IMG/VR virus record: IMGVR_UViG_3300048597_000258
Span: 1 to 59,764 of that record
From: a virus
Lineage: Duplodnaviria; Caudoviricetes
DNA: 59,764 nt
Strand: one strand, 5' to 3'
Shown here: positions 4,591-53,544 of the stretch, piece after piece
Numbering within the stretch: position 1 is the stretch's first letter
Layout: every line of letters begins with the position of its first letter
Made by a program: the position numbers and the translations under genes
The notes under the pieces: model-generated
The model's database searches: none
The model's input: only the letters and a program-made list of their open reading frames with translations
What the model was told of the DNA's origin: nothing

Positions 4591-5129
4591 CCAATACAGT
4601 ATATGTCATGGAGGCAGCAAATTTGTTTTGTGGCGATCACGACCCGACGGCCTCCAAGCACCTCACGCTTTCGGAACTCAAGCTGCCGCCGCTCCAGGCG
4701 ATCTATGCCGATCACCACGGTGGCGGCGCCCGCGTGGCAATCGAGGTGGAGGTCGGCGTCCAGAAGCTCGAGCCGACCTTCAAGCTTGGCGGCTTCGATC
4801 CCGCCCTGTTGGCCCAGTTCGGCCTCGGCTCGCGGTACAAGAATGTTTACACCGCATATGGCGTGATCCGCGACAAGCGGACGGGCCGCGCCACCGAGGC
4901 GAAGGCGATCATCGAGGCGCGTCTCGGCAAGATCGAGGCCGATGCCTTCACCCGCGGCGAGATGCTCGGCCATGAGTACGCGCTGAACGAAGTCACCCAC
5001 TACGAGCTTTGGTTTGACGGCAAGCCCAAGATCGTGTGGGACTTCTTCGAGAACACCTGGCAGGTCGACGGCGTGGACGAGAACGCCGACGAAAACCGCA
5101 TCCTTCGCGTTCCCGCGACGGGCGCCTGA
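4587..5129 (+). CDS. Tail tube protein (P2 FII-like)
   Basis: ELKLPPL...GGG...KLEPTFKLGGFDP and YELWFDGK motifs; position after sheath. Confidence 0.9.
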   Translation: MTNTVYVMEAANLFCGDHDPTASKHLTLSELKLPPLQAIYADHHGGGARVAIEVEVGVQKLEPTFKLGGFDPALLAQFGLGSRYKNVYTAYGVIRDKRTGRATEAKAIIEARLGKIEADAFTRGEMLGHEYALNEVTHYELWFDGKPKIVWDFFENTWQVDGVDENADENRILRVPATGA

Positions 5130-5416: not shown

Positions 5417-5544
5417 CATCGATGGTCGCGGACGTCGCGCACATGCTGCACACGCCCGTGACCGAACTTCTCGAAATGGATCTGCGCGACTTCATGGAAT
5501 GGCACCATGAAGCCGCGCGAATCGCAAAGGTTCGGGGCTTCTGA
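5383..5544 (+). other. -1 programmed frameshift (G GGT TTT) and GpE'-like extension
   Basis: GGGTTTTTT at 5383-5391. The -1 frame reads ...MVADVAHMLHTPVTELLEMDLRDFMEWHHEA... to TGA 5544, overlapping the TMP ATG. Confidence 0.88.
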
Positions 5545-7907
5545 TGGCTGAACAGGTTTCGTCCCTCATCGTTCGCCTGATCGATCAGGTCACAGGCCCC
5601 GCGCGGTCTGTCGCTACCGCGCTCTCCCGCATAGGCAAGTCGGTACAGGGTGCACGCGGAAGCGTCACCTTCGCTGACCGCCTCGACGCTGCGATGGCGA
5701 GGAACACGCGGCGGATCGATACCTATCGTGGGCAGATGGTGGACGCCATCGCGACCGTGTATGCGCTTGGAAGGGCAATCGGTGCTCCCGTCAATGCCTC
5801 CCGGAAGTTCGAGGCCGCCTTTGCTGACGTGAAGAAGGTGGTCGAGTTCCCGACGGAAGGGCCCTACTCCGCATCGGCGTTCCGCAAATCGCTCATCGAT
5901 CTGTCGCGTCGCGTGCCGCTGAGCGTCGAAGAACTGACGCAGATCGCGGCGGCCGGCGGACAGGCCGGCGTCGCTTTGGACGAGCTTGCAGGCTTCACGG
6001 AGAACGTAGCGCAAGTCGCGACCGCCTTCGAAATCAGCACGGAGGAGAGCGGCAAGGCTCTCGCCAATCTCAAGGCCGCGCTCAAGCTATCGAACCCGGA
6101 AGTGATGCTGCTCGCCGACCACATGAACGTGCTGGCGAACAACATGGCGACCAGCGAGCGGCAAGTCCTTGACGTGGTGAACCGCGTCGGCGCGCTCGGT
6201 GAAGTGGTCGGTGTGAAGGCGAAGGACGTCGCCGCCCTCGGCAGCGCAATGACCAGCGCTGGCGCCGATGCAGAAAGCGCCGGCACCGCCATCCGAAACC
6301 TGTTCCTCAATCTGGCGCAGGGGTCAGGAATGACGAAGGAGCAGGCCGGTGCGATGAAGCGCCTCGGCCTCGATGCAAAGAGCTTCCCGAAGCGGATGCA
6401 GGCCGAAGGCATGGTCGCGGTGGTCGATGTGCTTGAGCGCGTCGCGAAGCTTCCAAAGGATCAGCAGGCTTCGACCCTCACCGATCTCTTCGACAAGCGC
6501 GCTGTTGATGCCATTGGCCCGCTGCTGAACAACCTCGATCTGCTGCGGCAGGCGCTTGGCCTGGTGGCCGATGACACGGCGAACGCCGGCGCATCGCAAC
6601 GCGAGTTCGAGAAGCGAATCGACAACTTCGATGCCAAAATGAAGATGTTCGGCAACACGATGAATGCCATGAACATCGCGCTTGGCGATGCTCTGATTCC
6701 CGCCCTCACGACCATCCTTGAAAAGCTGACGCCGATCATCACGGCAATCGGTTCCTGGGCGGAGAAGAACCCGCAGCTTGCGGCAAGCATCGTCGGGGTC
6801 ACCGCCGGACTTCTCGCGCTGAACGCCGCCCTGATCGCGTTCAAGTACGTCGGCGCTCTTGGCTTCGGTGGCCTCCTGTCGATGACGAAGGGCGTCACGA
6901 CATTCGCGACCGGAGTTCACAAGGCGGCGGCGGGACAGATCGCGTTGAGCAAGGCGCTCGCGGGCATGAGCGGCGCGAACATGACCACCTTCACGACGAT
7001 GGGAGCGGGGCTGCGCGGCATGGCGCAAGCTGTTCCCGGCCTGTCCGGTCTGGCGACGGCGATGACTTCCATCGGCGCTGCGCTCGCGACGATCTCCGCG
7101 CCAGTGTGGCTCGGCATCGCTGCGGCCGTTGCGCTCGTCGCCGCGGCGGCATACTCGCTGTGGTATTATTGGGACCGCATTTCGTCGTTCGTCGGCGGCT
7201 TCGCAAGCACGCTGATGACGGAGCTTCAGCCGGCATTCGCGGCACTTGAGCCTGTGATGGAACCCATCGCGGGCCTAGCGCGCGCCATCGGAAGCGGTTA
7301 CGAGTGGGCCTCGCAGAAGATCTCCGACTTCATGGGCTGGCTTTCTTCCGTCTTCGAACAGGAGACGCTCACCGACGGACAGAAGGAAGCCTATCGGAAG
7401 TCCGGTTCCGATCTCGCGGAAGCAATGATCACTGCCATCAAGACAGCGTTCAATGAATTGCTCGCGTGGTTCTCCGAATTGCCGTCCCGCATCGTCGCGG
7501 CCATCGGGAGCATCGATCTCTCGGGGATTCTTAAGTGGCCCTCGATGCCTTCGTGGCTCGGCGGTGGTGGCGGGGGCGGCCAGCCATCCGGCGTTAAGGC
7601 GGCGCCGGGAGACGCCGCCGCCATGAGTGACTCAATCGACGGCAGAGCGCGCGGAGGTCCCGTCACCCGCGGCAAGTCCTATCTGGTCGGTGAGCACCGT
7701 CCCGAAATCTTCACGCCGTCGCAGAACGGCTACATCGGCCAGGTCGGTAAGGGCGGCGGCGGAACGACGATTTCGCCGACTTTCAACATCTCCATTAGCG
7801 GCAATGCGGATGCGTCGACCGTCGAGAACATCAGGCGCGTGCTGCGTGACGAGGTCCGCCAGGCGTTCCGCGGGGTCTATGCCGATGCCGGATTGAGGTT
7901 CACCTGA
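5544..7907 (+). CDS. Tape measure protein (TP901-type core)
   Basis: 787 aa helical, Ala-rich; FEAAFADVKKVV; hydrophobic segments; RARGGPV...YLVGEHRPE C-terminus. Confidence 0.93.
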   Translation: MAEQVSSLIVRLIDQVTGPARSVATALSRIGKSVQGARGSVTFADRLDAAMARNTRRIDTYRGQMVDAIATVYALGRAIGAPVNASRKFEAAFADVKKVVEFPTEGPYSASAFRKSLIDLSRRVPLSVEELTQIAAAGGQAGVALDELAGFTENVAQVATAFEISTEESGKALANLKAALKLSNPEVMLLADHMNVLANNMATSERQVLDVVNRVGALGEVVGVKAKDVAALGSAMTSAGADAESAGTAIRNLFLNLAQGSGMTKEQAGAMKRLGLDAKSFPKRMQAEGMVAVVDVLERVAKLPKDQQASTLTDLFDKRAVDAIGPLLNNLDLLRQALGLVADDTANAGASQREFEKRIDNFDAKMKMFGNTMNAMNIALGDALIPALTTILEKLTPIITAIGSWAEKNPQLAASIVGVTAGLLALNAALIAFKYVGALGFGGLLSMTKGVTTFATGVHKAAAGQIALSKALAGMSGANMTTFTTMGAGLRGMAQAVPGLSGLATAMTSIGAALATISAPVWLGIAAAVALVAAAAYSLWYYWDRISSFVGGFASTLMTELQPAFAALEPVMEPIAGLARAIGSGYEWASQKISDFMGWLSSVFEQETLTDGQKEAYRKSGSDLAEAMITAIKTAFNELLAWFSELPSRIVAAIGSIDLSGILKWPSMPSWLGGGGGGGQPSGVKAAPGDAAAMSDSIDGRARGGPVTRGKSYLVGEHRPEIFTPSQNGYIGQVGKGGGGTTISPTFNISISGNADASTVENIRRVLRDEVRQAFRGVYADAGLRFT

Positions 7908-8609: not shown

Positions 8610-9605
8610 ATGACCAAGCGCGCCGTCTACATGGTGACGATCGCGGGGAGCGATGTCACCTCCGCGCTCAATCCGCATCTGATCTCGCTTAGGGTTTCCG
8701 ACAAGGTGGGAACGCACAGCGACACGGCGAGCATCGAGCTTGATGACACGGACGGCAGGGTTGTCCTGCCGCAGGATGGAGTCCCTGTCGTGATCATGCT
8801 CGGATGGGAGGGGGCCGGAGTGCGGCTGGTCTTCGCCGGCACGGTGGACGAAGTGCGCTCCAGCGGCTCTCGCTCGGGCCGCACGATCACTGTCACCGCG
8901 AAGGGCATCGACACCAAGTCGAAGGCGAAGGAGCCGCAGCAGCGGCACTTCGACAGGAAGACCGTCAAGGACGTGCTGACCGAGGCGGGAAAGACCGCCG
9001 GCATCACGTCCGTGGAGGTCGATCCCGGCCTCGCGGACATCGAGCGCGAGTATGTCGAGATGCGGGATGAGAGCTTCATCCACCTCGGCGAGCGCCTGGC
9101 GCGGGAGATCGGCGGGAACTTCCGCGTGCAGGGCAAGACGGCAACGCTGTCGAAGCGCATGGGCGGCTACACGTCCTTCGTGATGGCGCGCTGGGGCGAG
9201 AACCTCCACTCATGGGACATCACTCCCGCGCTCGGCCGCCCTGCATTCAAGAAGACCCGCGCCCGCTGGTACGACCGCAAGGAGGCGAAGTGGAAGGAGC
9301 AGGAGGTCGAGGTCCAGCTTGAGGCCGAGGCCGAGAGCGTGGCCCGCTTCCCGGAGCCGAACGAAGCGCAGTCGAAGGACCGGGCGGGATCGGACAAGGC
9401 CACCAGCGAGCGCGACGTAGCCGAGGGGAGCGTCACCATCGAGGGGAACACCGGGGCGATTCCCGACGGGCTGTGCCTCCTTTCCGGGTGCCGCGCAGGG
9501 ATCGACGGGCCATACCGGATCGAGAGCGTAGACCACGAATATTCCCGCTCGGGTTTCACCACGCGCCTCGAGTTGAAGTCAGCAGGGGCGGGGGCGGGTT
9601 CCTAG
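8610..9605 (+). CDS. Baseplate hub / late control protein D
   Basis: LISLRVSDKVGTHSDTASIELDD, FAGTVDEV, DGPYRIESVDH motifs. Confidence 0.9.
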   Translation: MTKRAVYMVTIAGSDVTSALNPHLISLRVSDKVGTHSDTASIELDDTDGRVVLPQDGVPVVIMLGWEGAGVRLVFAGTVDEVRSSGSRSGRTITVTAKGIDTKSKAKEPQQRHFDRKTVKDVLTEAGKTAGITSVEVDPGLADIEREYVEMRDESFIHLGERLAREIGGNFRVQGKTATLSKRMGGYTSFVMARWGENLHSWDITPALGRPAFKKTRARWYDRKEAKWKEQEVEVQLEAEAESVARFPEPNEAQSKDRAGSDKATSERDVAEGSVTIEGNTGAIPDGLCLLSGCRAGIDGPYRIESVDHEYSRSGFTTRLELKSAGAGAGS

Positions 9606-9627
9606 CCAAACCAGAGGAGAACCGGTC

Positions 9628-10389
9628 ATGAAGATTGACCACAAGAGGCTCTTTGACGGCCTCCGCGCCAGCATGCACGGAGGCTCCCTGTCCGAGGCGC
9701 AGGTCGCCAGCTATGAGGCGATTCTCTATGCCGCCCGCACCCACGGCGTCACCGATCCCCGGCACCTGTCCTACATCTTCTCGACCACGCGCGGCGAAGT
9801 CGGCTCCGCCATGCAGCCCGTCCGTGAGGTCGGCAGGGGACAGGGCAAGCGCTATGGCGTTCCTGATCCCTCGACCGGGGAGGTCTACTTCGGGCGCGGC
9901 TTCGTGCAGATCACCTGGGCCGACAACTATCGGAAGCTCGGGAAGCGTCTCGGCCTCCCACTCTACGAGGAGCCGGACCTCGCGCTGAAGCCAGAGATCG
10001 CCGCGAAGATTCTGGTCATCGGAATGGTCGAAGGCATCTTCACCGGGAAGAAACTCTCCGACTACATCAATGACAAGGGCACCAACTATCGCGAGGCGCG
10101 GCGCATCATCAACATCATGGATCGCGCCGACGAGTTCGCGGAACTTGCGCGCCGCTATGAGGCGGTCATCCGCGCTGCGCTCATCACGGAGGGCAAGGGT
10201 GAGGTCAAGGACGTTTCGGCAACCGTCACGATCGCGAAGCCCGCGCCGAAGCCCGATCCCGCGCCTGCTCCCGAACCGCCGCCCGAGACGGAGGCGCAGC
10301 CGCACATGAGCGCGGCGCAAGTGATCGTCGGCGTGATCGCCGCCGCTGCCGCCGCAATCTTCGGCTGGATTTTCATGGGAGGCGAGTGA
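9628..10389 (+). CDS. Endolysin, GH19/lysozyme-like, with Pro linker and C-terminal TM segment
   Basis: MQPVRE...YFGRGFVQITWADNY...ARRIIN; PAPKPDPAPAPEPPPE linker; hydrophobic end VIVGVIAAAAAAIFGWIF. Confidence 0.85.
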   Translation: MKIDHKRLFDGLRASMHGGSLSEAQVASYEAILYAARTHGVTDPRHLSYIFSTTRGEVGSAMQPVREVGRGQGKRYGVPDPSTGEVYFGRGFVQITWADNYRKLGKRLGLPLYEEPDLALKPEIAAKILVIGMVEGIFTGKKLSDYINDKGTNYREARRIINIMDRADEFAELARRYEAVIRAALITEGKGEVKDVSATVTIAKPAPKPDPAPAPEPPPETEAQPHMSAAQVIVGVIAAAAAAIFGWIFMGGE

Positions 10390-10601
10390 TGGGCGACTAC
10401 ATCAAGGAGCGCAGCAAGGCATTCGCGGCCGGCCTTGCAGCCGCCATCACCATCGCCATCATCAAGCACGCCGAGAAGACCTTCGGCTTCAACATCGATG
10501 ACGGCATGGAAATCACGATCTCCGCCGCAGTCGGCGGCTTCATCAATGGCGTGATCGTCTATTGGGCGCCCGCGAACAAGCCGATGGAGACGAAGTCGTG
10601 A
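10389..10601 (+). CDS. Holin-like membrane protein (2 TM)
   Basis: Two hydrophobic segments ending VYWAPANK; follows the endolysin. Confidence 0.55.
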   Translation: MGDYIKERSKAFAAGLAAAITIAIIKHAEKTFGFNIDDGMEITISAAVGGFINGVIVYWAPANKPMETKS

Positions 10602-10759
10602 TCGCCCTCGCGATGCTGGTCGGCGGCGTCGCCATCGCCGTGTGGGGGCACATCCTCATGGACAGGGCCTCTGGCGAGGCCAAGGCTGATGGCCTGCTCC
10701 TCCTGGCTGTCGGTTTCGTCCTCGCCGTCTGCGGCCTCGTCGGGGGGATGGTGACGTGA
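10598..10759 (+). CDS. Small 2-TM membrane protein
   Basis: GTG start overlapping the upstream stop; two hydrophobic helices. Confidence 0.55.
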   Translation: MIALAMLVGGVAIAVWGHILMDRASGEAKADGLLLLAVGFVLAVCGLVGGMVT

Positions 10760-11175
10760 TCGGCGCCATCCTCAACGTCCTGACGGGCAAGGTGCTCGAC
10801 AAGGTGACCGGCGTCTTCGAACTCTACCTGAAGAAGCAGATTTCCGAGGCGGAGTTCAGATCGCGGGTGGAGATCGCCGTTCAGGAAACGGTCAGGGAAA
10901 CCGAGAAGGCATGGACCGAAGTGGCGGCGAAGCAGTACGCGGAGTTCCAGCAGACGGTGCGCCAGTCACCTGTCATCGCCCGCGCCTTCGCGGCGGTCAT
11001 CGTCACTCAGCTTTTCGTCCTGCTCTGGTACCAGTGGGGCGCGTCGGCGTTCCTTCTGGTAACCGGGACCGCCTGGCCCTCCGCGGGCGCCACGGTTGAC
11101 TGGGCCTACGCCATTCTCGCGCTCTGCCTCGGCGGCGGCGCGTTCGTGTTCCGAGGGAGCAGCGCACCGAAATGA
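10756..11175 (+). CDS. Holin-like protein (GTA 3TM holin-like)
   Basis: N-terminal amphipathic helix, coiled coil, then two TM segments. Confidence 0.55.
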   Translation: MIGAILNVLTGKVLDKVTGVFELYLKKQISEAEFRSRVEIAVQETVRETEKAWTEVAAKQYAEFQQTVRQSPVIARAFAAVIVTQLFVLLWYQWGASAFLLVTGTAWPSAGATVDWAYAILALCLGGGAFVFRGSSAPK

Positions 11176-11519
11176 CGACAGAGGTCCAAGCAGGCCCGGC
11201 CATCGTGGCCGGGTACAACTGGTCACTTCGGATTGTGGCCGACACCGCGGCATTTCCCTCCGGCGTGGCGATCACCGGTCACGTGCGGCGAAAGATTGCC
11301 GATGCAGCGCCCCTGGTGACGCTCTCGACCGCAGCCGGGCAGATCGTGCGCGTCGATGACTTCCGCATCGACATCACCATTCCCGGCGTGGCTTCAAGGG
11401 AATGGGCGCCCGGTGACGTGGTGATGGACTTCGTCCGCACCGATGTCGATCCAGACGCCTATCTCGGCTTCCGGCTGACCGTTCCCGTCACGATCCCCGT
11501 TACGCGCGGACTTCCCTGA
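11172..11519 (+). CDS. Putative virion adaptor (beta-sandwich)
   Basis: GHVRR...LVTLSTAAGQI...VVMDFVRTD pattern typical of small phage adaptor proteins. Confidence 0.5.
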   Translation: MTTEVQAGPAIVAGYNWSLRIVADTAAFPSGVAITGHVRRKIADAAPLVTLSTAAGQIVRVDDFRIDITIPGVASREWAPGDVVMDFVRTDVDPDAYLGFRLTVPVTIPVTRGLP

Positions 11520-12007
11520 TGCAGGAGATCTCTGTCACGACACAGACCGTTCCCATCGAGGTGGCGGTCAGGTCCAGCGCGCCCATCGCGCTCTCGCTTG
11601 CCTCGCCTCGGGCGGAGATCGCGCTCGTCGCCTCGCCGGGTCCTCGTGGCGCCCAGGGCGACCAGGGTCCCGATCCTTGGCTCGAGCCGGTCCAGTTCAT
11701 CACGGCGAGCGGCGCGCTCATCATCGACTACTCCCTCGGCAAGCATGTCCGGCTGACGCTTGCCGGGGACGTGACCTCGTTCGCGGTGACGGGCTGGCCG
11801 GCAGCGAACAGGATCGCGCGGCTCACTCTTGAGATTTTGAATGAAGGCGACTTCGGCATTCTCGCGTGGCCGAACGGAACCATCTGGCAATCCGGCTCCG
11901 TGCCGGAAATCACGCGGAGCGCGGGTGCGCGCGACCGCATCATCCTTTCCACCACCGATGCAGGCGCGACCGTTTACGGCGACCCAATCGGCTTCGACTA
12001 CCGCTAA
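11519..12007 (+). CDS. Short spike/fibre protein with collagen-like triplets
   Basis: N-terminal beta strands, GPRGAQGDQGP (Gly-X-Y), then a fibre-head-like domain (LAWPNGTIWQSGSVP). Confidence 0.55.
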   Translation: MQEISVTTQTVPIEVAVRSSAPIALSLASPRAEIALVASPGPRGAQGDQGPDPWLEPVQFITASGALIIDYSLGKHVRLTLAGDVTSFAVTGWPAANRIARLTLEILNEGDFGILAWPNGTIWQSGSVPEITRSAGARDRIILSTTDAGATVYGDPIGFDYR

Positions 12008-12026
12008 CCTTTAAGGAGCAAGAGCT

Positions 12027-12416
12027 ATGACAGCCCTTTCCAACTACGCCGAAAGTCAGGTCATCAAGTGGCTTATGACCGCCGCCGCCGTCTCCCGCCC
12101 CACCGCATGGTTCGTGGCGCTGCACACCGCCGATCCCGGCGAAGATGGCAGCGTGGGCGAACTCTCCGGCAACGGCTATGCGCGCCAGTCCGCAACCTTC
12201 ACCGAGGACACCAACGGCCTCGTGGACAACGATGCCGACATCACCTTCGGCCCGAATACCGGAGTGAACTGGGGCGACGTCACGCATGTCTCCGTCTGGA
12301 CGGCGGTGTCGAGCGGGCAGTGCCTTTACAAAGGCGCGCTTTCCTCGCCCGTCACGATCAACGTGAACGACAGCCTGCGCTTCGCCGCTGGTCAGCTCGA
12401 CTGTTCAATCGACTGA
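12027..12416 (+). CDS. Small structural beta-protein, putative fibre subunit
   Basis: ALSNYAE...FVALHTADPGE...SGNGYARQ...WGDVTH...GDSLRF-like motifs; strong TAAGGAG RBS; terminator directly downstream. Confidence 0.7.
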   Translation: MTALSNYAESQVIKWLMTAAAVSRPTAWFVALHTADPGEDGSVGELSGNGYARQSATFTEDTNGLVDNDADITFGPNTGVNWGDVTHVSVWTAVSSGQCLYKGALSSPVTINVNDSLRFAAGQLDCSID

Positions 12417-12440
12417 CGAGCAGCCGATCCAGCCAACAGT

Positions 12441-12467
12441 GACCCGCGCTTCATGCGCGGGTCTTTT
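12441..12467 (+). terminator. Intrinsic terminator / attenuator
   Basis: Perfect 9-bp stem GACCCGCGC-TTCAT-GCGCGGGTC followed by TTTT. Confidence 0.75.
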
Positions 12468-12484
12468 CTGCAACGGGAGCCACC

Positions 12485-13324
12485 ATGACGATCTCCACAC
12501 GCGACGGCCTCATCAATGGGCTGGCGAACAATTCCAGCCGCCTTGTGATCGACAAGGCATCAATCGCCAACGCCGCCGCTGGTCAGTTCCATTCGCTGTG
12601 GCGTGCGACCGGACAGCCGGGGCAGGGTGCCATTCCCGGCGCTGCCGCCGTGTGCGCGCATGGTCTTCTCGGCTCGTTCAACTTCACGCAGCAGACCGCG
12701 CCCGCGACCAGTTACATCGCCTATCTCGAAGCGGTCTGCTCCAACGCGCAGCAGGTGCTTGAGCTTCACGACCGCCTCATGCACATGGGCGGCCTTGTCG
12801 GCAACGTCGCCACGGCGCAGACCGTCAACGTGGACATCTCCGCGAACCTCGCCACCAACAATCTCGCGGCGCGCATCGGTGATGCCAACTATTCGGACGT
12901 TCAGTGGTGGCTCGAATGGTACACCGACACCGGATCGACCGCCGTCACGGCCACGGTGAACGTCACTTACAACGATGGATCGAGCGGCAACCTCACGGGC
13001 ATCTCGCTCGCGGCCACGCGCCGCGCGTCCTTCATGGTGCCGCTCAATGGCCTGATCCCGGCAGCGGATAGCGGCAAGTTCATCCGTGACGTGAACACCG
13101 TCACGCTCTCGGCCACGACCGGAACGGCTGGCAATTTCGGCGTCACCGCGACGAGGCCGCGCGCATCCCTCGGATGCCCGGTCGCGAACTTCAAGTGGTC
13201 CGCCAATTGGGCCGACCTTCCGATTTCGGAACTCCCGAACGATAGCTGCCTGTTCCTCATCGCTCAGGTTTCCACGACCTCGACCGGAACGGTGCGCGGC
13301 AGCGGCAAGATCGCGCACGGCTGA
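12485..13324 (+). CDS. Putative structural (fibre tip-like) protein, 279 aa
   Basis: Thr/Gly/Ala-rich beta protein; GGGAG RBS; lies within the fibre module. Confidence 0.55.
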   Translation: MTISTRDGLINGLANNSSRLVIDKASIANAAAGQFHSLWRATGQPGQGAIPGAAAVCAHGLLGSFNFTQQTAPATSYIAYLEAVCSNAQQVLELHDRLMHMGGLVGNVATAQTVNVDISANLATNNLAARIGDANYSDVQWWLEWYTDTGSTAVTATVNVTYNDGSSGNLTGISLAATRRASFMVPLNGLIPAADSGKFIRDVNTVTLSATTGTAGNFGVTATRPRASLGCPVANFKWSANWADLPISELPNDSCLFLIAQVSTTSTGTVRGSGKIAHG

Positions 13325-13330
13325 CCCGAC

Positions 13331-15655
13331 ATGGACAGGGTGTCGGGGATCGACAAGCCGCTCTCGCTCAACGGCGCGTCGGATGCTTGGGACGATGAAC
13401 TCGCGGGGAAGATACTCCTCGCAGACTATTTCCCCGTCGAGCCGGGCGCATCGCTTGTCGCGAGCGCCACCATCAATGCCGTGGCAGAGCGGATCGAGCC
13501 GTATCCTGCGACGGCGAACCTTCGGGCCACCGCGTCGATCAGCGCCGCCACCCTCACCACGCGCGGCGTCACCGCGAGCCTTGTCACCCCGGCGCGCATC
13601 ACTGCCAATGGTGAAGGCTGGCGCGTCGGTGCTGCGGCACTCGCGGCTTCTGGCAAGATCACGGCGCTCGCCCGCAAGGTCGGCCATCTGGCGCAAGGCT
13701 GGACGCATGTCCTGTGGCCGCATGAGACGTGGAGCAAGACCGCTTCGCCATCGACCACATGGGACGCGGACGCTTCGCTCGTCGGTGCGGCTGGCATTTC
13801 GGCAACGGGACGGCGCATCGGAAATCGCGCTGCGGCGCTTGTTGCCAGCGCAGCGCTCGGTGCATCGGCGCTCGCGACCCGTCCGCGTGCGGCGATCCTC
13901 GGCGGCACTGGCGCGCTTCTCTCGACAGGCCAACGCATCGGCAATCGCTCGGCGGCGCTCGCCGCTTCCGCATCCATCGCGGCGGCGGGGCGTGCATGGC
14001 GCGCCCGCTCGGCGCTGCTCGCATCTTCGGCCTCGCTCGCAGCCATCGCGGGTGCATCGCGGCCACGAGGCGCAGTGATCTCGGCTTCGGCAGCGCTTGT
14101 CGCCGTCGCATCTGCCGCCCGCGTCCGTTCGGCGGCACTCGCTGCATCGTCTGCCATCGAGGCCACGGCCACGAGGTCCCGGCACAGGTCGGCCGCACTC
14201 ATCGCCAGCGCAGGCCGCATCAATTGGGTTGGAAATTCCGCCTTCGCTGGCGCGGTCGCCGGAACTCCCGGCACGATGCCGACCGGATGGGCGAGCAGCA
14301 CGGTCGCCGGGATCACACGACAGGTTGTCGGGTCTGGCGTCGATGGCGGCTATTCCTACCTCGACGTTCGCTGGTTCGGCACCAACACATCGGGATCGAT
14401 TGGTTATCCGACGATCTTCCCGTCGCAGCCATTGCTTGCGAACGGCGCGCTGCCGACGAAGGCGGGCGATGTTGTGAGTGGCGGCGCTCTGGCGAAGATG
14501 GTCGGCGGAACCACGGACGGCATCACGAATGTTCGCCTCGATCTCGGCGAGCATCTGGACAATGGCTCGCGGCAAGCCGGAACGATTGCGCTCTTTTGGG
14601 ACGGATCGCAGGACATCACGAACTGGCGCGAGGCGTCGGCTTCGAGGACATGCACAAGCGGAACGGCAGTCGCGGCCCGCCTCACCGTCGGCCTTCAAGT
14701 CGCAGCCGGGGCGACCATCGACATCACGCTTCGCTTCGCGTGGCCCTCGACGGAGCGCGGCACCTATCAGGGCTTGTTCCCGGCAACGCTTGCCGATCAC
14801 ACGGCAGTCATGTTCGGCTATGCCGCAGCATTCCGAAACGTGGCAGCGTCGCTGGTCGCCAGCGCATCGGTGTCCGCTCCTGCAGCCCGGACGCGATCCG
14901 CGAGCGCTGCGCTTTCTGCATCGTCCGCCATCGCCGCGAAGCCTTCGGGACAATTCCAAGCATCGGCTCATCTTGCCGCAGCCGGATCAAGCCTGAGTGT
15001 CGGCGGCGGGCTTCGCCTGCGCACGGCGATCATGTCTGCATCGGCATCGCTTGCGGCAACGGCGTCGGTCCCGCGCGCGCGATCCGCGCAGCTTTCGTCT
15101 TCCGCATCGCTCAGTGCAAGCGGACGGCGCATCGCGAGCAGGGCTGCGATCCTGCAGGCAGGCGCAAGCCTCGCCGCTTCGGCGCGCGGCCTGTTCTCGC
15201 GATCCGCCTTGCTCGCCTCCACGTCAACCATCGCGGCGACGGCTGCAAGGGCACGGCATCGTGCAGCCATCCTGCCTGCGGCATCGGCCATCGTGGCGAG
15301 GGCGGGTGCGATCAGGCCCCGCGCGGCGCTCCTTGCGGCATCCGGCACGATTGCGGCCACCGCCACAGCCCTTCGCCCTGCTTCGGCGCTCCTTGCTGGT
15401 GGCGCTGGCGTGGCCGCACAGGCCCGGCGCGAGGCATCGCGCAGCGCGGTCCTTGCCGCGACCAGTGCCGCGGCAGCGGATGCAATGCGGGACAGGGCGC
15501 GCGGGGCGGCCCTCGTCGCCGTCGCAGGGCTCATCACGGAGGCCAAGGCGGATCGAACCACCTCCGCACACCTTGAGGCGCATTCCACCGTCATGGCGCG
15601 GGCAAGGAGGCGCTCGCGGGCCTTCGCATCGAACGCACTCAACCTCGGAATCTAG
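13331..15655 (+). CDS. Ala-rich 20-aa repeat protein with central lectin/CBM-like domain
   Basis: About 24 repeats of AxLxASAx[IL]xAxAxxxRxR[SA]; globular insert about 14219-14845. Confidence 0.75.
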   Translation: MDRVSGIDKPLSLNGASDAWDDELAGKILLADYFPVEPGASLVASATINAVAERIEPYPATANLRATASISAATLTTRGVTASLVTPARITANGEGWRVGAAALAASGKITALARKVGHLAQGWTHVLWPHETWSKTASPSTTWDADASLVGAAGISATGRRIGNRAAALVASAALGASALATRPRAAILGGTGALLSTGQRIGNRSAALAASASIAAAGRAWRARSALLASSASLAAIAGASRPRGAVISASAALVAVASAARVRSAALAASSAIEATATRSRHRSAALIASAGRINWVGNSAFAGAVAGTPGTMPTGWASSTVAGITRQVVGSGVDGGYSYLDVRWFGTNTSGSIGYPTIFPSQPLLANGALPTKAGDVVSGGALAKMVGGTTDGITNVRLDLGEHLDNGSRQAGTIALFWDGSQDITNWREASASRTCTSGTAVAARLTVGLQVAAGATIDITLRFAWPSTERGTYQGLFPATLADHTAVMFGYAAAFRNVAASLVASASVSAPAARTRSASAALSASSAIAAKPSGQFQASAHLAAAGSSLSVGGGLRLRTAIMSASASLAATASVPRARSAQLSSSASLSASGRRIASRAAILQAGASLAASARGLFSRSALLASTSTIAATAARARHRAAILPAASAIVARAGAIRPRAALLAASGTIAATATALRPASALLAGGAGVAAQARREASRSAVLAATSAAAADAMRDRARGAALVAVAGLITEAKADRTTSAHLEAHSTVMARARRRSRAFASNALNLGI

Positions 15656-15665
15656 GGAGGAACCA

Positions 15666-15953
15666 ATGGCCGAAAACGGCAATGGCAGTAATGTGACCAA
15701 GCTTGAGAGCCGCTGGATCGCATTCATCACGGCCATCGCGCTCCTCTTTGGTGGATGGTGGCTGCAGAACCAGTACGACACCGTGCTTCGCTTGCAGCAG
15801 CAGCAGACCGATTTCATGCGGCACGTCGATGATAAGTATGTGCAGAAGGACTACCTCGAAACAGTCACGAGCCGCCTTGAGCGCATCGAGGACAAGATTG
15901 ATGACCTCCGCGACACTGACCAGCGGAGAGTACCCACCAGCGTAGGGCGGTGA
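15666..15953 (+). CDS. Single-TM coiled-coil protein
   Basis: GGGAGG RBS; WIAFITAIALLFGGWWL then RLERIEDKIDDL. Confidence 0.7.
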   Translation: MAENGNGSNVTKLESRWIAFITAIALLFGGWWLQNQYDTVLRLQQQQTDFMRHVDDKYVQKDYLETVTSRLERIEDKIDDLRDTDQRRVPTSVGR

Positions 15954-15956
15954 TCC

Positions 15957-16244
15957 ATGCCGCCCGCCGTTCACAATCTCCTGTCATCCGCGATACCGCT
16001 TCCGGTCGTTGTGGTGCTGGTGCTTCATGCGTCGGCACTCACATGGTTCGTCGCGAGCAGCTTCCAGAGGCTCGATGCACGCGTGTCGGCCCTTGAACTT
16101 GCCGACAAGCCGATGATGAACCACGAGGCGCGCATCATCGTCCTGGAGCAGCGGGATGCTCGCGTCTTCGACGAATTGACCGAAATCAAGATGATGCTCC
16201 GTGAACGGAAGTCATCGCTCGATTTGCCGAACGCAAAACCATAG
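15957..16244 (+). CDS. Single-TM coiled-coil protein
   Basis: IPLPVVVVLVLHASALTWF then LDARVSALE...RIIVLEQ. Confidence 0.65.
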   Translation: MPPAVHNLLSSAIPLPVVVVLVLHASALTWFVASSFQRLDARVSALELADKPMMNHEARIIVLEQRDARVFDELTEIKMMLRERKSSLDLPNAKP

Positions 16245-16258
16245 GAAAGGAGAACGCC

Positions 16259-16699
16259 GTGCTTCGCCAGCTTTCCTTGCTTGTCCTGATCTTCGCCGCC
16301 TTCATCCTGACCCTGATCGTCGCCGTCATCGGAGAGGCGCACGCGCACCAGCCGATCCGTTCAAACTCAGTCGTGATCTTTCCTGATCCATACGAAGGTA
16401 AGCGCGACCCTCAGACGGGCCTCCTGTGTTGCGGCGGCGAGGACTGCGAAGTCTTGAAGGTGGAACCCGGTGTTCTGACGCCCGGTGATGACGGGATCAG
16501 GCTTCGCCTCACCGAAGCGCAAGCCCGCAAGATCAACCCGAACCGCATAGGCGACGTTGACACGGTGATCCCGTTCAATCGCATTCAGCCGACGCCGCCA
16601 GAATGGAGCGGCGAGTTTCGCGTCTGTATCCCCTCGCGCCATGAGCCAAACGTGAGGCCGAGAGATTTCTTCTGCTTCTGGGCACCACCCGACACCTGA
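16259..16699 (+). CDS. Exported Cys-rich protein
   Basis: Signal peptide ending AHAH; CCGGEDC...C...CFW; AAGGAG RBS. Confidence 0.65.
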   Translation: MLRQLSLLVLIFAAFILTLIVAVIGEAHAHQPIRSNSVVIFPDPYEGKRDPQTGLLCCGGEDCEVLKVEPGVLTPGDDGIRLRLTEAQARKINPNRIGDVDTVIPFNRIQPTPPEWSGEFRVCIPSRHEPNVRPRDFFCFWAPPDT

Positions 16700-16744
16700 C
16701 GATCTCCCTGCGGCAGCGGCTGGGACCGCAGGTCGAGCGCAAAG

Positions 16745-16783
16745 AGGCCCGCGCACCGAGTAACATCGGTGGCGGGCCTTTTT
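16745..16783 (+). terminator. End-of-late-operon intrinsic terminator
   Basis: AGGCCCGC-G-CACCGA-GTAACA-TCGGTG-GCGGGCCT followed by TTTT. Confidence 0.85.
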
Positions 16784-16869
16784 GTCGTTCTTGGGGGAGC
16801 GTCTTGCCCCAGCAGCCCTTCTGGTTCAGAAATACCGGCGATCAGAACCCGATTCCAGGAGGCAACGCG

Positions 16870-17859
16870 ATGCGCAAGAGACCGGCCCTGAAGCTGGTTC
16901 ACGGTTCGGCTCAAGGCGATCATGGCCGTTCAGATCCTTCGTCGCCGGCCGAAATGCCAGCCGCCCCCCAGGAAGGCGGCGAGCGGGTTCTGGCGCGCAT
17001 GCTCGAGGAAGGCGTGATGGAAGGGGATTCGCTGGCCATTCTTCCGCTCCTTCCTCGCGAAAGCGTCGATCTTTTCTTCATGTCCCCACCGTACGCCGAT
17101 GCCAGGGCCTACAGCCGCATTCACCCGGATCGCTATGTCGAATGGTTCCTGCCGTTCGCGCGCGCCATGTTCGATGCGGCGAAGCCGACCGGCAGTCTGA
17201 TCATCAACATCAAGAACCGCGTGGCAAACCGGGGACCCCTCAAGGGTCAGCGGCATCCGTATGTCTACCAGCTTGTGCTCGCCCTGCAGAACATGGGCTG
17301 GCGGTGGGTGGAGACTTACATCTGGGCGAAGCCCAACGCCGTGCCCGGCAGGTTCGGGCCGCGGACAAAGGACAGCTTCGAGTACGTCTATCATTTCGCC
17401 CGCGGCAACAAGCCGTTCTTTGACCTGAGTGCCGTCCGGGTTCCGTACAAGGCGGACGCCTCCGAGATCGATCGCAGGAAGAAGGACACCCTCGGCCGGC
17501 GCAGCACGGAAGCGGGGTTCGGGCGTGACCGGACAAAAACCTATCTTCTGGGGGGGGCCGACCCCGGCAACGTCGTTTCGGTGGCCCAGACCTACAACCA
17601 GCACAAGGGAGTGGCGCACACTGCCGCCATGCCGGAGGGCCTGGCCCAGTTCTTCATCCTGGCAGCGAGTCCTGCCGGGGGCGTCGTAATCGATCCATTT
17701 GCGGGTGGGGCTACCACCGTCGTCGTGGGCCGCCGCCTCGGGCGGAGAGCAGCCGGCATCGAGTTGCACGAGGCATTCGCAAAGGAAGGGCGCCGCCGTA
17801 TTGCGGCCGGCCTCGCCGCCGACACCCCTGGACGGCTGATCGGCGCCATGAAGGGCTGA
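16870..17859 (+). CDS. DNA amino-methyltransferase, beta group (likely m4C)
   Basis: FMSPPY (motif IV) precedes VIDPFAGGATT (motif I); HTAAMP; GGAGG RBS. Confidence 0.9.
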   Translation: MRKRPALKLVHGSAQGDHGRSDPSSPAEMPAAPQEGGERVLARMLEEGVMEGDSLAILPLLPRESVDLFFMSPPYADARAYSRIHPDRYVEWFLPFARAMFDAAKPTGSLIINIKNRVANRGPLKGQRHPYVYQLVLALQNMGWRWVETYIWAKPNAVPGRFGPRTKDSFEYVYHFARGNKPFFDLSAVRVPYKADASEIDRRKKDTLGRRSTEAGFGRDRTKTYLLGGADPGNVVSVAQTYNQHKGVAHTAAMPEGLAQFFILAASPAGGVVIDPFAGGATTVVVGRRLGRRAAGIELHEAFAKEGRRRIAAGLAADTPGRLIGAMKG

Positions 17860-17862
17860 CCG

Positions 17863-19005
17863 GTGACCGTGGCGGCAACCATTCAGTCGATCCTCGACGC
17901 GGGGACCTGGGCGCAGCGCATTCAGCAGATCCGGCTGGTCCCCCAGCGCCATGGCACGGAGGATCATGGCGCGATCTATGCGGCAGTTGCGCGCGAGCTT
18001 TACATGCCGCATCTCGCTCCGGATTTCGCCTACATTCACGAGGCTCCCTTCTATGAGACCCCGCACTTCTTTGCGGCCTACGACGAAGCGTTCCGGCTGA
18101 CGGAGGGGTTCACCCTTGTTTCAGAGGACCGGCTCGAGGCGGCGCTGATCCAGTGTCCGTGTGTCCTGCTGGTCTTCCGCACGCTGCTCGGGCTGACAAA
18201 GGATGAATTCGCTCACTCCACTTTGCTGGCCGGTGGTCCTGACAATCTGGCTCCGCTCACCGCTTCGCAGGTCGACACGATGGAGAGGAGCGCGGTCCAC
18301 GCCCAGCGGTCTGGCACGGTCGCCGCGCTCGCCAAGGCCGAGGCGCAGGCAAAGGTCGCGGCGAAGACCATCAGCATGGCGATGGGCGGCGAATTGTTCG
18401 GCGATGCCCCGCCCGGTCTCAAGAGCAAGCAGCGCAAGCCCGACACACAGGGCGGCTGGGACAGCGTCAGTTTCTATGCCGCTAATGGCGTGCCGTTACG
18501 CGTCTTCCTGCATCAGCGGCACTATGGCGGAGCCTTCCGCCAGGTACTCGATGCCACGTCCACGAAGAGGGGCGATCTCATCGAGGATGCCGTCGAGGCG
18601 CTGTTCGGTGCCTACGGCATATCCTTCATTCGCACTGGCAGCCACAATCAGGCTGATGTGGCGCGCCGCTTCGAGGTGCATGTGACCCCGGCGCCTGATT
18701 TCGTGGTCTTCGACCCGGCCGACGACAGCCTGAAAGCCATGCTCGAGTGCAAGGGCACCAACAACGGGGGTACTGCCCGGGACAAGGCGCTCCGGTTTGG
18801 GCGTCTCCGGGCCGAATCGGTAAGGCTTGGCGGCATTCCACTCATGGCGGTGCTGGGAGGGATCGGCTGGGCGCGGATCAATGATGCGCTCGGACCTGTC
18901 GTTCGGGACACCGACGGGCGGGTGTTCACGCTGTCCACGCTTTCCTCCATGCTGGAGGTCGCGCCGTTCCCCGGCCTCATCACCATCCATCCTGAATCCG
19001 CCTGA
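17863..19005 (+). CDS. Putative Type II restriction endonuclease, PD-(D/E)xK
   Basis: E...PDFVVFD...MLECK catalytic pattern; starts 3 nt after the MTase stop. Confidence 0.7.
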   Translation: MTVAATIQSILDAGTWAQRIQQIRLVPQRHGTEDHGAIYAAVARELYMPHLAPDFAYIHEAPFYETPHFFAAYDEAFRLTEGFTLVSEDRLEAALIQCPCVLLVFRTLLGLTKDEFAHSTLLAGGPDNLAPLTASQVDTMERSAVHAQRSGTVAALAKAEAQAKVAAKTISMAMGGELFGDAPPGLKSKQRKPDTQGGWDSVSFYAANGVPLRVFLHQRHYGGAFRQVLDATSTKRGDLIEDAVEALFGAYGISFIRTGSHNQADVARRFEVHVTPAPDFVVFDPADDSLKAMLECKGTNNGGTARDKALRFGRLRAESVRLGGIPLMAVLGGIGWARINDALGPVVRDTDGRVFTLSTLSSMLEVAPFPGLITIHPESA

Positions 19006-19019: not shown

Positions 19020-20621
19020 TCATGCCACCAGCCGAAGGATCGGGATGGCCAGTTCGGCGTCCATAGACCGCTGCGGGCTCCCGCAACGCACTATAGACCA
19101 TGACTCGGGGCCCCTTGCGAAAGCAAGAAGGGCCCCGAGGGTTGAATCGGCCTCGATAAGTATTTGATTTCCTTGTCTCCGAGCGCCGACCCTCGAAATG
19201 AGGCTCCGCACAAGCTCACGCGCGCGGACCCCTTCGGTGCTTGCTCTGCCGAGCAACTTCTCGACTTCACCAAGCTGTCGTCTGTAACGTGCGGGTGCAT
19301 CGGTCGGCGCCGGGACCACATTCACTTCCGCCGGCACCTCGATTCTTTCCCGCTCTGCCTCGAGGCCCCTGATGCGCGACATGACAGCCGCGCTGCTCTT
19401 GCCCTCCTCGATCGCCGCCATCAGGTTGGCGATCTTGCGGTCAATCTCCCCCCTCCGCCGCTGGACGTTCTCGGCCTCACGCGCCCGCTCCGCCATCCGG
19501 CGCTCCACGCTTTCCCGGAGGTGCCGGGTGTATTCCTCGACGAGGACCTCGTCGTCCATGGCCGTCCGGAGCGCCTCGAGGATCCAGCCTTCCAGCCTGC
19601 CCATGTGCACGCCGCGATTGTTCCCGCAGGACCCCGCGTTCATCTGCGCCGTGCACCGGAAGTAGCCGTTGGCGAGCGCCATGGGGCTGCCGCACTCCTC
19701 GCAGCGCACCAGGCCCGACAGAAGCGTCTTGGGGCGGCGTAGCTGGTGCGGGGGATAGTTCCTTGCCGCGTCCACCCGGCGGGCCTGTACGGCCTCCCAC
19801 AGGGCCGTGTCGACGATCTGCAGCCCCGGCACATCCTGGCTGATCCAGACCTCCCTGGGGTTTGGCCGCGCGATGCGCCTTCCCGTCTCCGGGTCCTTGA
19901 TGAAACGCTGACGGTTGAAGACGGGCCTCCCGACATAGATCGGGTTTACCAGAAGGCCGTTGAGGCGGCTGACCGTGCCGACGAGCGTCGACACCCGCCA
20001 CTCCTTGCCACGCGGCGCCTGCACGCCTTCCCGGTTCAGCGCGGCGCATATCGCCCGCGGGGCCACGCCGGCGGCATAGTCCCCATAAATCCTCCTGATC
20101 ACCTCGGCCTCGCCTTCGTCTATGACGCGGAGGCCCCGCTTCTCCCCGGCGCCGACCCGGTAGCCGTAGCAGTTCCCGCCGGGGATCCTGCCATCCCGTG
20201 CGACCGCGAGGTTGCCGCGCCTGGTCTTGTCGGAGAGTTGCTTGAGGAACATCTCGCCCATCAGGCCCTTCAGGCCAGTGTGAAGCTGGGTGATCCGGCC
20301 ATCCGCGATCGTCCAGAGTTCGACGCTGTCCCTCTCGGTGAGCGAGTAGAGCCGCGCCGAGGCCTCGAGGTTGCGGTTGTAGCGGTCGAGGTCTTCGGCC
20401 ATCACCGCGTCGAAGGTGCCGAGCTTCATGGCGGTGAGCATGGCCAGATACTGCGGCCGCTGCGCCTCATGGGCGCCGGAGACGGACTCGTCGGCGTAGC
20501 GCTTGACGATCACCCCTCCCAGGGCGGCGATCCGCGCCTCGCACTCCCTGATCTGGTCAGCGCACGATTTGGGGTTTTGCCGGTCGCTGCTGTGGCGCGC
20601 GTAGATTGCCCATCTGAGCAT
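19020..20621 (-). CDS. int: Large serine integrase
   Basis: AIYARHSSDRQ catalytic Ser, EDLDRYNR, recombinase domain, Zn ribbon LLSGLVRCEECG, coiled coil. Confidence 0.95.
   Translation of the reverse strand: MLRWAIYARHSSDRQNPKSCADQIRECEARIAALGGVIVKRYADESVSGAHEAQRPQYLAMLTAMKLGTFDAVMAEDLDRYNRNLEASARLYSLTERDSVELWTIADGRITQLHTGLKGLMGEMFLKQLSDKTRRGNLAVARDGRIPGGNCYGYRVGAGEKRGLRVIDEGEAEVIRRIYGDYAAGVAPRAICAALNREGVQAPRGKEWRVSTLVGTVSRLNGLLVNPIYVGRPVFNRQRFIKDPETGRRIARPNPREVWISQDVPGLQIVDTALWEAVQARRVDAARNYPPHQLRRPKTLLSGLVRCEECGSPMALANGYFRCTAQMNAGSCGNNRGVHMGRLEGWILEALRTAMDDEVLVEEYTRHLRESVERRMAERAREAENVQRRRGEIDRKIANLMAAIEEGKSSAAVMSRIRGLEAERERIEVPAEVNVVPAPTDAPARYRRQLGEVEKLLGRASTEGVRARELVRSLISRVGARRQGNQILIEADSTLGALLAFARGPESWSIVRCGSPQRSMDAELAIPILRLVA
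19069..19088. other. Candidate attP core inside the integrase 3' end
   Basis: Imperfect inverted repeat CGCTGCGGG-CT-CCCGCAACG; CCCGCAAC matches the 3' end of initiator tRNA-Met. Confidence 0.55.
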
Positions 20622-20754
20622 CAAGATCTCCAACAATTCGTTCCGCCTCTGCCTCGGCCATCAGGCGCGCAAGGGCCAGCAAGGCCGAGCGGGCCGGGGA
20701 GGGTAGTCCTGAAAGCCTCGGAATGGCAACTCGCGGGACAGGCGGGCGGGACAT
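20557..20754 (-). CDS. Small protein overlapping int start, candidate recombination directionality factor
   Basis: 65 aa, helical ALLALARLMAEAEAER; assigned by position only. Confidence 0.35.
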   Translation of the reverse strand: MSRPPVPRVAIPRLSGLPSPARSALLALARLMAEAEAERIVGDLDAQMGNLRAPQQRPAKPQIVR

Positions 20755-47047: not shown

Positions 47048-47054
47048 TCCTCGA

Positions 47055-48677: not shown

Positions 48678-48915
48678 TCCGGCCAACCCCTGCGCGGCGG
48701 CCACCGCCCTTCGCGAGGTCCTGCTCAAGGCGTTGGCCAATGGGCAGATGGAGGAGGTGGAATTCTCCGCCGGCAACGGCTCGCAGCGCCGGGTGCGCCG
48801 GAAGTTCGCGAGCCTTGACGAACTCCGCGCCGAGATCGCGCGCCTCGACGGCGAGTGCAAGGTCCTGACCACCGGCAAGCCGGCGCGCTACGGGCTTCGC
48901 GCGGGAGGTATCTGA
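48664..48915 (+). CDS. Head completion protein (gpW-like)
   Basis: VEF...VRRKFASLDELRAEIARLD. Confidence 0.65.
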   Translation: MPTIDPANPCAAATALREVLLKALANGQMEEVEFSAGNGSQRRVRRKFASLDELRAEIARLDGECKVLTTGKPARYGLRAGGI

Positions 48916-50186: not shown

Positions 50187-50241
50187 TCCAGTCCTCAACA
50201 ATCCACGCGCCCCTTAGGGCGCATTCCAAGGAGCAAAGCTC

Positions 50242-50613: not shown

Positions 50614-50678
50614 TCCACCCCATCCCCTGAACCCCATAAGTCCGCTTCGCACGGGCTTCACTCAAGGAGGCAAGCGCT

Positions 50679-53533: not shown

Positions 53534-53544
53534 GAAGGAAGGCC

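Follow-up and report, generated by a model that had tools for sequence, protein, structure and literature searches.

What is built by three consecutive 'hypothetical' phage genes, the last of which encodes a protein rich in 20-residue repeats? The question is raised by IMG/VR virus record IMGVR_UViG_3300048597_000258, a complete record of 59,764 bp (CheckV 100%; G+C ~65%), the whole of which is called the window below. It is the genome of a complete temperate contractile-tailed phage. All three open reading frames (ORFs) lie on the plus strand, where an earlier note on this DNA had placed them, at 12027–12416, 12485–13324 and 13331–15655, and encode proteins of 129, 279 and 774 amino acids (aa). 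The 129-aa and 774-aa genes most likely specify an accessory fibre of chain-like build ('beads on a rope') in this phage, a reading given a probability of about 0.72. The 774-aa protein, the rope, would be an extended scaffold in which each 20-aa unit is a docking site. Subunits of 129 aa, the beads, would clamp each unit by beta-sheet augmentation, probably as dimers, and bead number and fibre length would both be set by how many units there are (21 solid, 4 weak). The 279-aa protein would be a third, optional component, gripping a motif at the rope N-terminus. The pairing of bead with rope is held with more confidence than the scheme as a whole; the chances that the 279-aa protein binds the rope N-terminus are evenly balanced. 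The scaffold and subunit design is the 'chain-like fibre' architecture published between 2023 and 2026. It is not new, contrary to the earlier suggestion of a possibly undescribed system.

The bead family and the proposed repeat-bearing rope

The 129-aa protein (12027–12416, plus strand) is a member of the GP4 gp80 / fibre I family, as judged by sequence comparison. It matches Pfam PF23140 ('Podophage GP4 fiber I protein gp80') with E 1.4e-39 and 135.8 bits, against a cut-off of 27. The match is near full length, with residues 3–126 aligned to profile positions 1–127 of 128, and the same assignment is obtained in a scan of the whole record. Among proteins of a large collection, 152 relatives were found, and PF23140 is present in every one. 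As a single sequence the protein matches a solved chain of GP4, 8jou_a (PDB entry 8JOU, with 10 chains), at E 5.4e-11. The gp80 family profile matches the same chain at E 1.7e-29 and also picks up 9c39_K (E 2e-4) and 9mt4_I; accession 9C39 appears in the paper on the neck whiskers of phage Sf14 (PMC11821841).

Expression signals flank the bead gene. The Shine–Dalgarno sequence AAGGAG (12013–12018, plus strand), read directly, lies 8 nt 5' of the ATG. Directly 3' of the gene is a terminator-like hairpin followed by TTTTCT (12441–12469, plus strand), with a 9-bp stem (8 GC) and a 5-nt loop. This is the sole terminator-like site within 9000–17000, and the local fold energy is −31 kcal/mol (z −2.2). 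In this phage the hairpin could raise the ratio of bead to rope, and together with the strong ribosome-binding site would raise bead supply. Both signals are present as the earlier note had described them. A terminator is not general among relatives: such a hairpin lies within 110 nt of the end of 2/159 gp80-like genes, as compared with 45/2215 background ORFs, and a terminator after the bead gene is ruled out as a family rule.

The rope (13331–15655, plus strand) is periodic at 20 aa. At lag 20 the fraction of identical residues is 0.24 for the full-length protein, 0.39 for residues 148–297 and 0.34 for residues 506–774; the maximum in 500 shuffles, taken over lags 1–100, is 0.161. A repeat profile built from the in-register 20-aa units finds 25 units. 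Thirteen form a C-terminal array (residues 501–760; 14831–15610), eight an N-terminal array (residues 148–301; 13772–14233), and four weak, degenerate units occupy residues 39–108 (13445–13654), with individual E values of 2.5e-4 to 0.64. The 21 units of the two arrays are solid and evenly spaced at exactly 20 aa. The previous count of about 24 repeats, distributed as 13, 7 and about 4, was right to within one unit. The consensus is xRxRSAaLaASAs[LIV]AAxAx[RA], with A6 in 20/20 units and L8 in 18/20. Even positions 6–18 are mainly small or hydrophobic, and several odd positions are also alanine. Tandem Repeats Finder reports no DNA-level repeat with the period of the 20-aa unit in the rope gene; the units are therefore old and diverged.

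Between the two arrays lies a globular domain (residues ~302–500; 14234–14830). In the ESM Atlas the stretch of residues ~295–505 resembles viral CBM_4_9 / laminin-G-like jelly-roll modules, where CBM denotes a carbohydrate-binding module (feature score 0.89, TM-score 0.78–0.81). This similarity is a lead only, and at that level it agrees with the lectin- or CBM-like domain already suspected of interrupting the repeats. The domain would probably act as a sugar-binding module. It occurs alone in two proteins of the large collection (P0002 and P0003), in an ORF of locus L054 and in gene 49 of Azospirillum phage Cd. Relatives of the rope are few. The same collection holds four, namely the two proteins just named, which have the central domain only, and two that bear repeats (P0001, 1326 aa, and P0004, 897 aa). 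A third relative with like repeats is an 803-aa ORF of L007, a 63-kb viral contig. As a single query the rope found no relative among the viral contigs; among annotated phages the central domain alone was matched, in Azospirillum phage Cd, and no Pfam family was matched.

Association of candidate ropes with small-subunit genes

Because the rope has no Pfam or PDB match and few relatives, its link to the bead was tested by association and not by homology. A periodicity detector took the best residue identity at lags 10–45 in 120-residue windows, with a threshold of z ≥ 5 against shuffles. The rope scores z 9.6 and all other local ORFs fall below 3.5. Of 163 background ORFs (≥150 aa), drawn from both strands of the window and from three unrelated phage loci, none passed apart from the rope and its two antisense shadows. 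The detector was applied to 81 viral loci with a gp80-like ORF (79 viral contigs together with GP4 and CRP-4), and a periodic neighbour was defined as an ORF of period 19–22 or 38–44 within 6 kb of the gp80-like gene. Such a neighbour is found in 44/81 loci and lies downstream in 39 of these 44. Where at least 3 kb of downstream sequence is available, the periodic ORF is downstream in 36/60. The periods cluster at 20 (19 ORFs) and at 40–42 (24 ORFs). An independent set of loci from bacterial genomes of many phyla gives a similar picture, with a periodic neighbour in 44/79 and a downstream one in 35/56 of those with room. In the window the rope gene begins 915 nt after the end of the bead gene, with one gene between.

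The estimated unit number of the periodic neighbours runs from ~4 to ~40, with a median of 9. A wide range among relatives is expected of an element that sets length, and the 21–25 units of the window are long but not unique. Very long periodic ORFs (1412–2302 aa, period 40) stand beside gp80-like genes in five loci (L028:53-6961, L034:7434-12155, L132:7387-12144, L140:7370-11608 and L158:7983-13133). L028 and L034 are viral contigs, and the remaining hosts are Kofleriaceae, Solirubrobacterales and unclassified bacterial metagenome-assembled genome (MAG) contigs. The strongly periodic part is estimated at ~40 units in L028 and ~16 units in L034. In the jumbo Caulobacter phage CcrPW the gp80-like gene (20238–20633) adjoins a small 'tail fiber protein' gene and the portal gene.

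GP4 itself has a 325-aa gene just 3' of gp80. BLOSUM-based autocorrelation of its product peaks at lag 20 with z 5.7, exceeding all 200 shuffles. This protein, which has no PDB entry by sequence, would be the GP4 rope.

A second association emerges from 80 viral loci (L168–L247) chosen on a gene like that for the 279-aa protein. The gene directly after the 279-like gene is long (≥150 aa) in 53/80 loci, and 45 of these 53 are periodic; it is short in 17 and none is called in 10. The gene directly before encodes a 100–200-aa protein in 48/80. It belongs to the gp80 family in 6 and to an unnamed cluster of 133–150-aa proteins in 21; a gp80-family gene occurs somewhere in 10/80 loci, mostly directly upstream. 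The unnamed cluster, exemplified by L187:4538-4990 with 20 similar ORFs directly 5' of 279-like genes, has no Pfam match and aligns weakly with gp80 in hhalign (probability 52%, E 1.4e-4). It may be a second bead family. Among 47 non-redundant long ORFs downstream of 279-like genes, the period varies with the small protein upstream. An upstream unnamed ~135-aa protein of 'cluster 0' goes with a rope period of 22/44 in 16/16 cases (one of 23 and one of 45 counted), and an upstream gp80 family member goes with a period of 20/40 in 4/5. Where a conventional fibre gene stands upstream, the downstream protein is mostly of 71–84 aa and has no repeats. This co-variation of period and small protein is the strongest indirect evidence for the repeats as docking sites of the small subunit.

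Several observations weigh against the bead-and-rope reading and are gathered here. Under the detector ~45% of gp80-like loci have no periodic neighbour, GP4 and CRP-4 included, and by BLOSUM-based autocorrelation the CRP-4 neighbour gp54 is insignificant at lag 20. Phage CcrPW (L167) has no annotated rope-sized gene near its gp80-like copy, as judged by annotation. One of the periodic ORFs counted (L012, 530 aa) is collagen-like. The 80-locus counts are not fully independent because the loci are fairly close relatives, their 279-like genes being 61–78% identical. The 279-like gene is missing from 81/81 viral gp80 loci, the closest relative L007 included, and is therefore dispensable for the bead–rope pair. 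Searched against the PDB, the rope finds nothing at E ≤ 10 and hence has no detectable sequence similarity to solved chains; ropes are highly divergent in general. The hydrophobic moment of the repeats at 170–180 degrees, the signature of a beta-strand, is insignificant (z ≤ 1.7), and the strand that the earlier note had read from the alternating pattern is not confirmed statistically. Finally, PHROGs names the bead family 'head protein' (phrog_240, E 5.3e-29).

This last label, which several GenBank homologues of the bead share, suggests that the 129-aa protein might decorate the capsid and be unrelated to the 774-aa protein; the GP4 fibre, as described in passages of PMC13730344, does dock onto the capsid. 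The solved homologue is nonetheless fibre I of GP4, both in the name of PF23140 and in entry 8JOU. The gene also follows tail and lysis genes, stands beside tail-fibre-like genes far from the capsid gene at 50679–51710, and co-occurs with periodic ORFs. A pure head protein is considered very improbable.

More plausible, but still decidedly unlikely, is a 774-aa protein that folds by itself, as a beta-solenoid or an alanine-rich coiled coil free of beads, its adjacency to the bead gene reflecting a shared tail-fibre neighbourhood. Twenty residues would suit a single turn of a solenoid, alanine is plentiful in the protein, and many phage fibres are repetitive, the collagen-like ORF of the same screen among them. 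A self-folding protein fits poorly with a period that shifts with the adjacent small-protein family (16/16 and 4/5), and with repeats that are mostly gone where a conventional fibre gene replaces the small-subunit gene. Solved relatives use this type of scaffold, according to the portions of the structural papers drawn on below. Helical amphipathicity is below random, with hydrophobic moments at 100 degrees (alpha-helix) of z −1.6 and −2.3. The ESM Atlas model of the whole rope is poor (predicted TM-score (pTM) 0.40; predicted local distance difference test, pLDDT, 0.59), in keeping with a protein that would not fold on its own.

The 279-aa family, its possible partner motif and the proposed polarity of the rope

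If the repeats dock beads, what does the gene between bead and rope contribute? The 279-aa protein (12485–13324, plus strand) has no match in Pfam, PHROGs or the PDB, and its family profile also finds nothing in the PDB. The family is very large. A threshold of E ≤ 1e-3 brings in 1426 representative clusters, and clustering at 90% identity gives at least 5462, none of which has a name. The protein has an Atlas model of high confidence (pTM 0.92), without a neighbour of known fold.

A candidate partner is provided by the gene that follows. Many genes after 279-like genes start with a motif also present in the rope, ...LSGGxDxW-DDGxAGxILxxDYF, in which W20 is invariant in a 25-sequence alignment. 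In the rope it occupies residues 8–35 (...LSLNGASDAWDDELAGKILLADYF; 13352–13435, plus strand). A jackhmmer search with rope residues 1–60 against 5685 ORFs from three sets gave 33 hits, each directly 3' of a 279-like gene; the remaining genes in this position have more divergent N-termini, beyond the reach of the profile. From these sequence relationships, the 279-family gene and the gene with the N-terminal motif look like a conserved two-gene pair without annotation.

The pair is joined to gp80-like genes in some bacterial genomes. In the bacterial-genome set a 279-like gene is present in 4/80 loci. Cypionkella and Deinococcales MAGs carry a gp80-like gene, a 279-like gene and a 20-aa-periodic ORF in that order, with overlapping stop and start codons. 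In a Micropepsaceae MAG the 279-like gene comes directly after the gp80-like gene, and the true start of the rope is uncertain because the frame called for the periodic ORF (period 42) is a different one and overlaps the end of the 279-like gene. The set of 129-aa, 279-aa and 774-aa genes is a recurring cassette. Co-occurrence of all three, a check proposed in the earlier note, is seen in so far as the order recurs in distant hosts; it is not seen in the 81 viral gp80 loci, which have no 279-like gene.

Elsewhere the 279-like gene accompanies other fibres. In 23 Rhodobacter capsulatus phages it comes after conventional fibre genes with PTR repeats, and the annotation shows no gp80-like gene in the vicinity. 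Rhodobacter phages of the RcD cluster have the 279-family pair alone. Of the 17 short proteins (53–119 aa) encoded after 279-like genes in the 80-locus set, nine (in L192, L202, L204, L223, L225, L231, L239, L241 and L244) end in two to three copies of a hairpin-like motif, [KR]x[WY]xG[STAG]x[WY]. The same motif occurs in Rhodobacter phage gp14/gp41 (L002:6830-7078 and L003:6824-7069).

Which end of the rope faces the virion is suggested by comparison with the closest relative, L007. This contig keeps gpD, the lysis genes, and the genes for a 115-aa protein, a 162-aa protein and the bead at 78–88% identity. Its 803-aa rope has a distinct globular N-terminal portion of 215 residues, lacks the central domain and carries ~23–28 units. 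The C-terminal 133 residues of the window rope are 45% identical to those of L007, with the last residues alike, and the short C-terminal end after the C-terminal array is common to L007 only. Across 279-family loci, rope C-termini are otherwise unrelated to each other. The slot of the 279-aa gene, between the bead and rope genes, is filled in L007 by a gene resembling helix-turn-helix (HTH) and HNH_3 homing endonucleases (L007:7444-8274). Because L007 keeps the upstream genes and the rope C-terminus and has neither a 279-like gene nor the motif, the C-terminus is taken to face the virion. The C-terminal end would then attach to conserved virion parts, and the N-terminal end would be distal and exchangeable, holding the 279-aa protein in this phage.

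A different placing of the 279-aa protein deserves weight as the less probable course. It might be an anchor of the rope proximal to the virion, or an assembly factor outside the virion. The family is 75–82% identical over hundreds of clusters, which is unusual for a receptor-binding tip, and it is paired with the N-terminal motif on very different downstream proteins. An anchor of this kind fits poorly with L007, which retains the upstream genes and the rope C-terminus in the absence of both the 279-like gene and the motif, and with rope C-termini that vary from phage to phage while motif and 279-like gene move together. A distal 279-aa protein at the N-terminus of the rope is preferred.

The attachment site may involve the two genes upstream of the bead gene (11172–12007, plus strand), which are syntenic with it in L007. 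Their products are possible virion-attachment parts. The 115-aa and 162-aa proteins are 79% and 78% identical between the two phages, and their order is kept. The 162-aa protein matches tail-fibre PHROGs, and its C-terminal domain is 28% identical to the 'fiber protein' gp53 of CRP-4, the gene for which adjoins the gp80-like gene of that phage. Neither protein has a meaningful match in the PDB, and the 115-aa protein has none to the fibre–tail adaptor of GP4. For a domain that would fix the rope to the virion, the one hint is its C-terminal stretch of 133 residues shared with L007. All the physical contacts proposed for this phage are drawn from homology, synteny and co-variation; stoichiometry, rope polarity, attachment site and a function in adsorption are likewise proposals.

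Comparison with solved fibres and setting in the phage

How does the proposed fibre compare with those for which structures exist? Fibre I of GP4, from Zheng et al. (2023, J Mol Biol), was reportedly the first bead-and-rope design to be solved. It is described here from passages in PMC12609058, PMC13730344 and PMC11445570. In GP4 a separate 'rope' protein holds five Fiber-1 dimers (PMC12609058). The likeness to the window is close: the beads belong to the same Pfam family and match the solved chain 8JOU, the rope is encoded separately near the bead gene, and the GP4 downstream gene also has a 20-aa period. The differences are of scale and setting. GP4 has five dimers as against 21–25 candidate docking units in the window. 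It is a podophage whose fibre sits on a ring of 93-aa immunoglobulin (Ig)-like adaptors, whereas the tail of the window phage is contractile, and a search there for a homologue of the adaptor found none. Within the window rope lies a CBM-like domain, and ahead of the rope gene stands the 279-aa gene, which GP4 lacks.

In Pseudomonas podophage A1002, with a nozzle-rope protein gp39 and fibre dimers of gp40/gp41, the rope is ~300 Å long and binds 11 dimers, each of which forms an augmented beta-sheet with it (PMC13730344). Arithmetic on the residue ranges published there gives a docking spacing of ~20–24 residues per dimer. Like the window rope, that of A1002 is long, has many docking sites and includes a globular domain, Ig-like in A1002 and CBM-like in the window. 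The virion-attached part of gp39 is its C-terminal residues, as proposed for the window rope. In A1002, however, rope and part of the nozzle form one protein and there are two bead proteins, whereas the window has a single bead gene, a rope that stands alone and roughly double the number of units. The word 'repeat' is absent from the main text of the A1002 paper (PMC13730344). Scaled from A1002, the window fibre would be ~57–68 nm long if one dimer binds per unit; one monomer per unit would give half as many dimers.

Phages with contractile tails supply further parallels. The neck whiskers of Bas63 and Sf14 are described in parts of PMC12609058 and PMC11821841 as gp80-like dimers on a rope-like extension. 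The Bas63 collar has a shorter rope domain with two whisker dimers (PMC12609058). In these phages the collar protein itself supplies the rope, as a short extension at its N-terminus, whereas in the window it is an independent 774-aa protein. By analogy with cryo-electron microscopy of the GP4, A1002 and Bas63 relatives, as far as these papers were drawn on, docking of a small subunit at each scaffold unit, with unit number setting length, is a design that exists; in this the earlier note anticipated well. The neck fibre of Anabaena myophage A-1(L), as presented in passages of PMC10966104, is also a long, flexible, beaded accessory fibre with a carbohydrate-binding module, and its genes stand at a distance from those of the remaining structural proteins. 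The chain is built without a scaffold, from fourteen gp81 trimers joined head to tail, and length is not set by a repeat protein. The 'gp80' of A-1(L) is unrelated in role to GP4 gp80. Set beside these systems, the proposed fibre of this temperate myophage has a long rope that is a protein in its own right, an internal CBM-like domain and an extra 279-aa partner.

In chaperone–usher pili each subunit donates a strand to the next and there is no separate scaffold. The proposed fibre resembles these pili in that a strand of one chain would join the sheet of another. The earlier note had gone further and supposed that each repeat completes an incomplete 129-aa fold, in true donor-strand complementation. 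For this speak the A1002 rope strand, which joins the beta-sheet of the subunit (PMC13730344), and the core positions 6–18 of the repeat, small and hydrophobic at most sites. In the passages describing A1002, however, the subunits dimerise by hydrophobic contacts and are then 'augmented' by the rope (PMC13730344), so that the published description is one of augmentation and not of fold completion. Nor is there a chaperone- or usher-like gene among the 29 window proteins scanned against Pfam, and the cassette sits in a cluster of phage structural genes. Fold completion of the pilus kind is unlikely, and augmentation of bead dimers is the preferred account.

A tape measure protein of a phage likewise fixes the length of an assembly by its own length, and does so inside the tail tube. 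This is the likeness proposed for the rope. It matches no tape-measure family in Pfam and does not sit between the tail chaperone genes and the distal tail genes; the real tape measure of the phage is encoded at 5544–7907 (PF10145, phrog_28), followed by gpU and gpD.

The phage as a whole combines a lambda-like head module with a P2-like contractile tail. Terminase, portal, protease and capsid genes lie at 44972–51710 and baseplate genes at 52955–55930; fibre genes span both ends of the record. The tail sheath (2364–3845) and tail tube (4587–5129) genes are separated by a 242-aa ORF (3862–4590) with a weak MarR-type HTH match below the Pfam cut-off and a match to a 'transcriptional activator' PHROG, an odd spot for a regulator. 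After the tail genes come an endolysin and small membrane proteins, and then the cassette. The endolysin (9628–10389) has a partial match to class I chitinases, a Pro/Ala-rich stretch and then a hydrophobic C-terminal segment, a composition that suggests a membrane-tethered lysin.

The 3' side of the cassette is occupied by genes for a DNA methylase, a serine recombinase and RecT. Immediately after the rope are ORFs of 94, 95 and 146 aa (15669–16699) with only weak PHROG matches, to small proteins annotated without function, and no conservation in L007. An N6/N4 DNA methylase (16804–17859) is followed by a 380-aa ORF without a Pfam match (17863–19005), and the large serine recombinase (19020–20636) is on the opposite strand to the methylase. 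The methylase and the 380-aa ORF, placed by the integrase, may be restriction-modification or anti-restriction cargo.

Solved structures of chain-like fibres come from no more than a few phages. The association data suggest that they are common, with ~4 to ~40 units, in viral contigs and in bacterial-genome loci of many phyla that are presumed prophages. The rope can be recognised by two features, a ~20-aa period and a place next to a gp80-like gene. In the main texts of the literature searched, no description was found of the ~20-aa periodicity of rope sequences or of the 279-aa family. Within that literature, two findings are new: the rule of ~20-aa periodicity, together with its 22-aa counterpart, and the pairing of the 279-aa family with the N-terminal motif. 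The three 'hypothetical' genes of the window gain an annotation, and the 279-aa family, among the more abundant unnamed phage proteins seen, gains in the motif a concrete, testable partner. Fibre length could be predictable from the genome, and could be engineered by adding or removing units. A broader picture is tentative and falls a little short of an even chance. In it, fibres of the bead-on-rope type would make up a wide, modular superfamily, with their length encoded in the genome. Each of several small-subunit families would have period-matched ropes (gp80 with 20 aa, the unnamed ~135-aa family with 22 aa), and these ropes would be capped by a portable, hitherto undescribed pair of 279-family protein and conserved N-terminal motif that also plugs into conventional fibres through short adaptors. 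If this is true, the periodicity rule would let many 'hypothetical' phage proteins be annotated and the length of their fibres be read from sequence.

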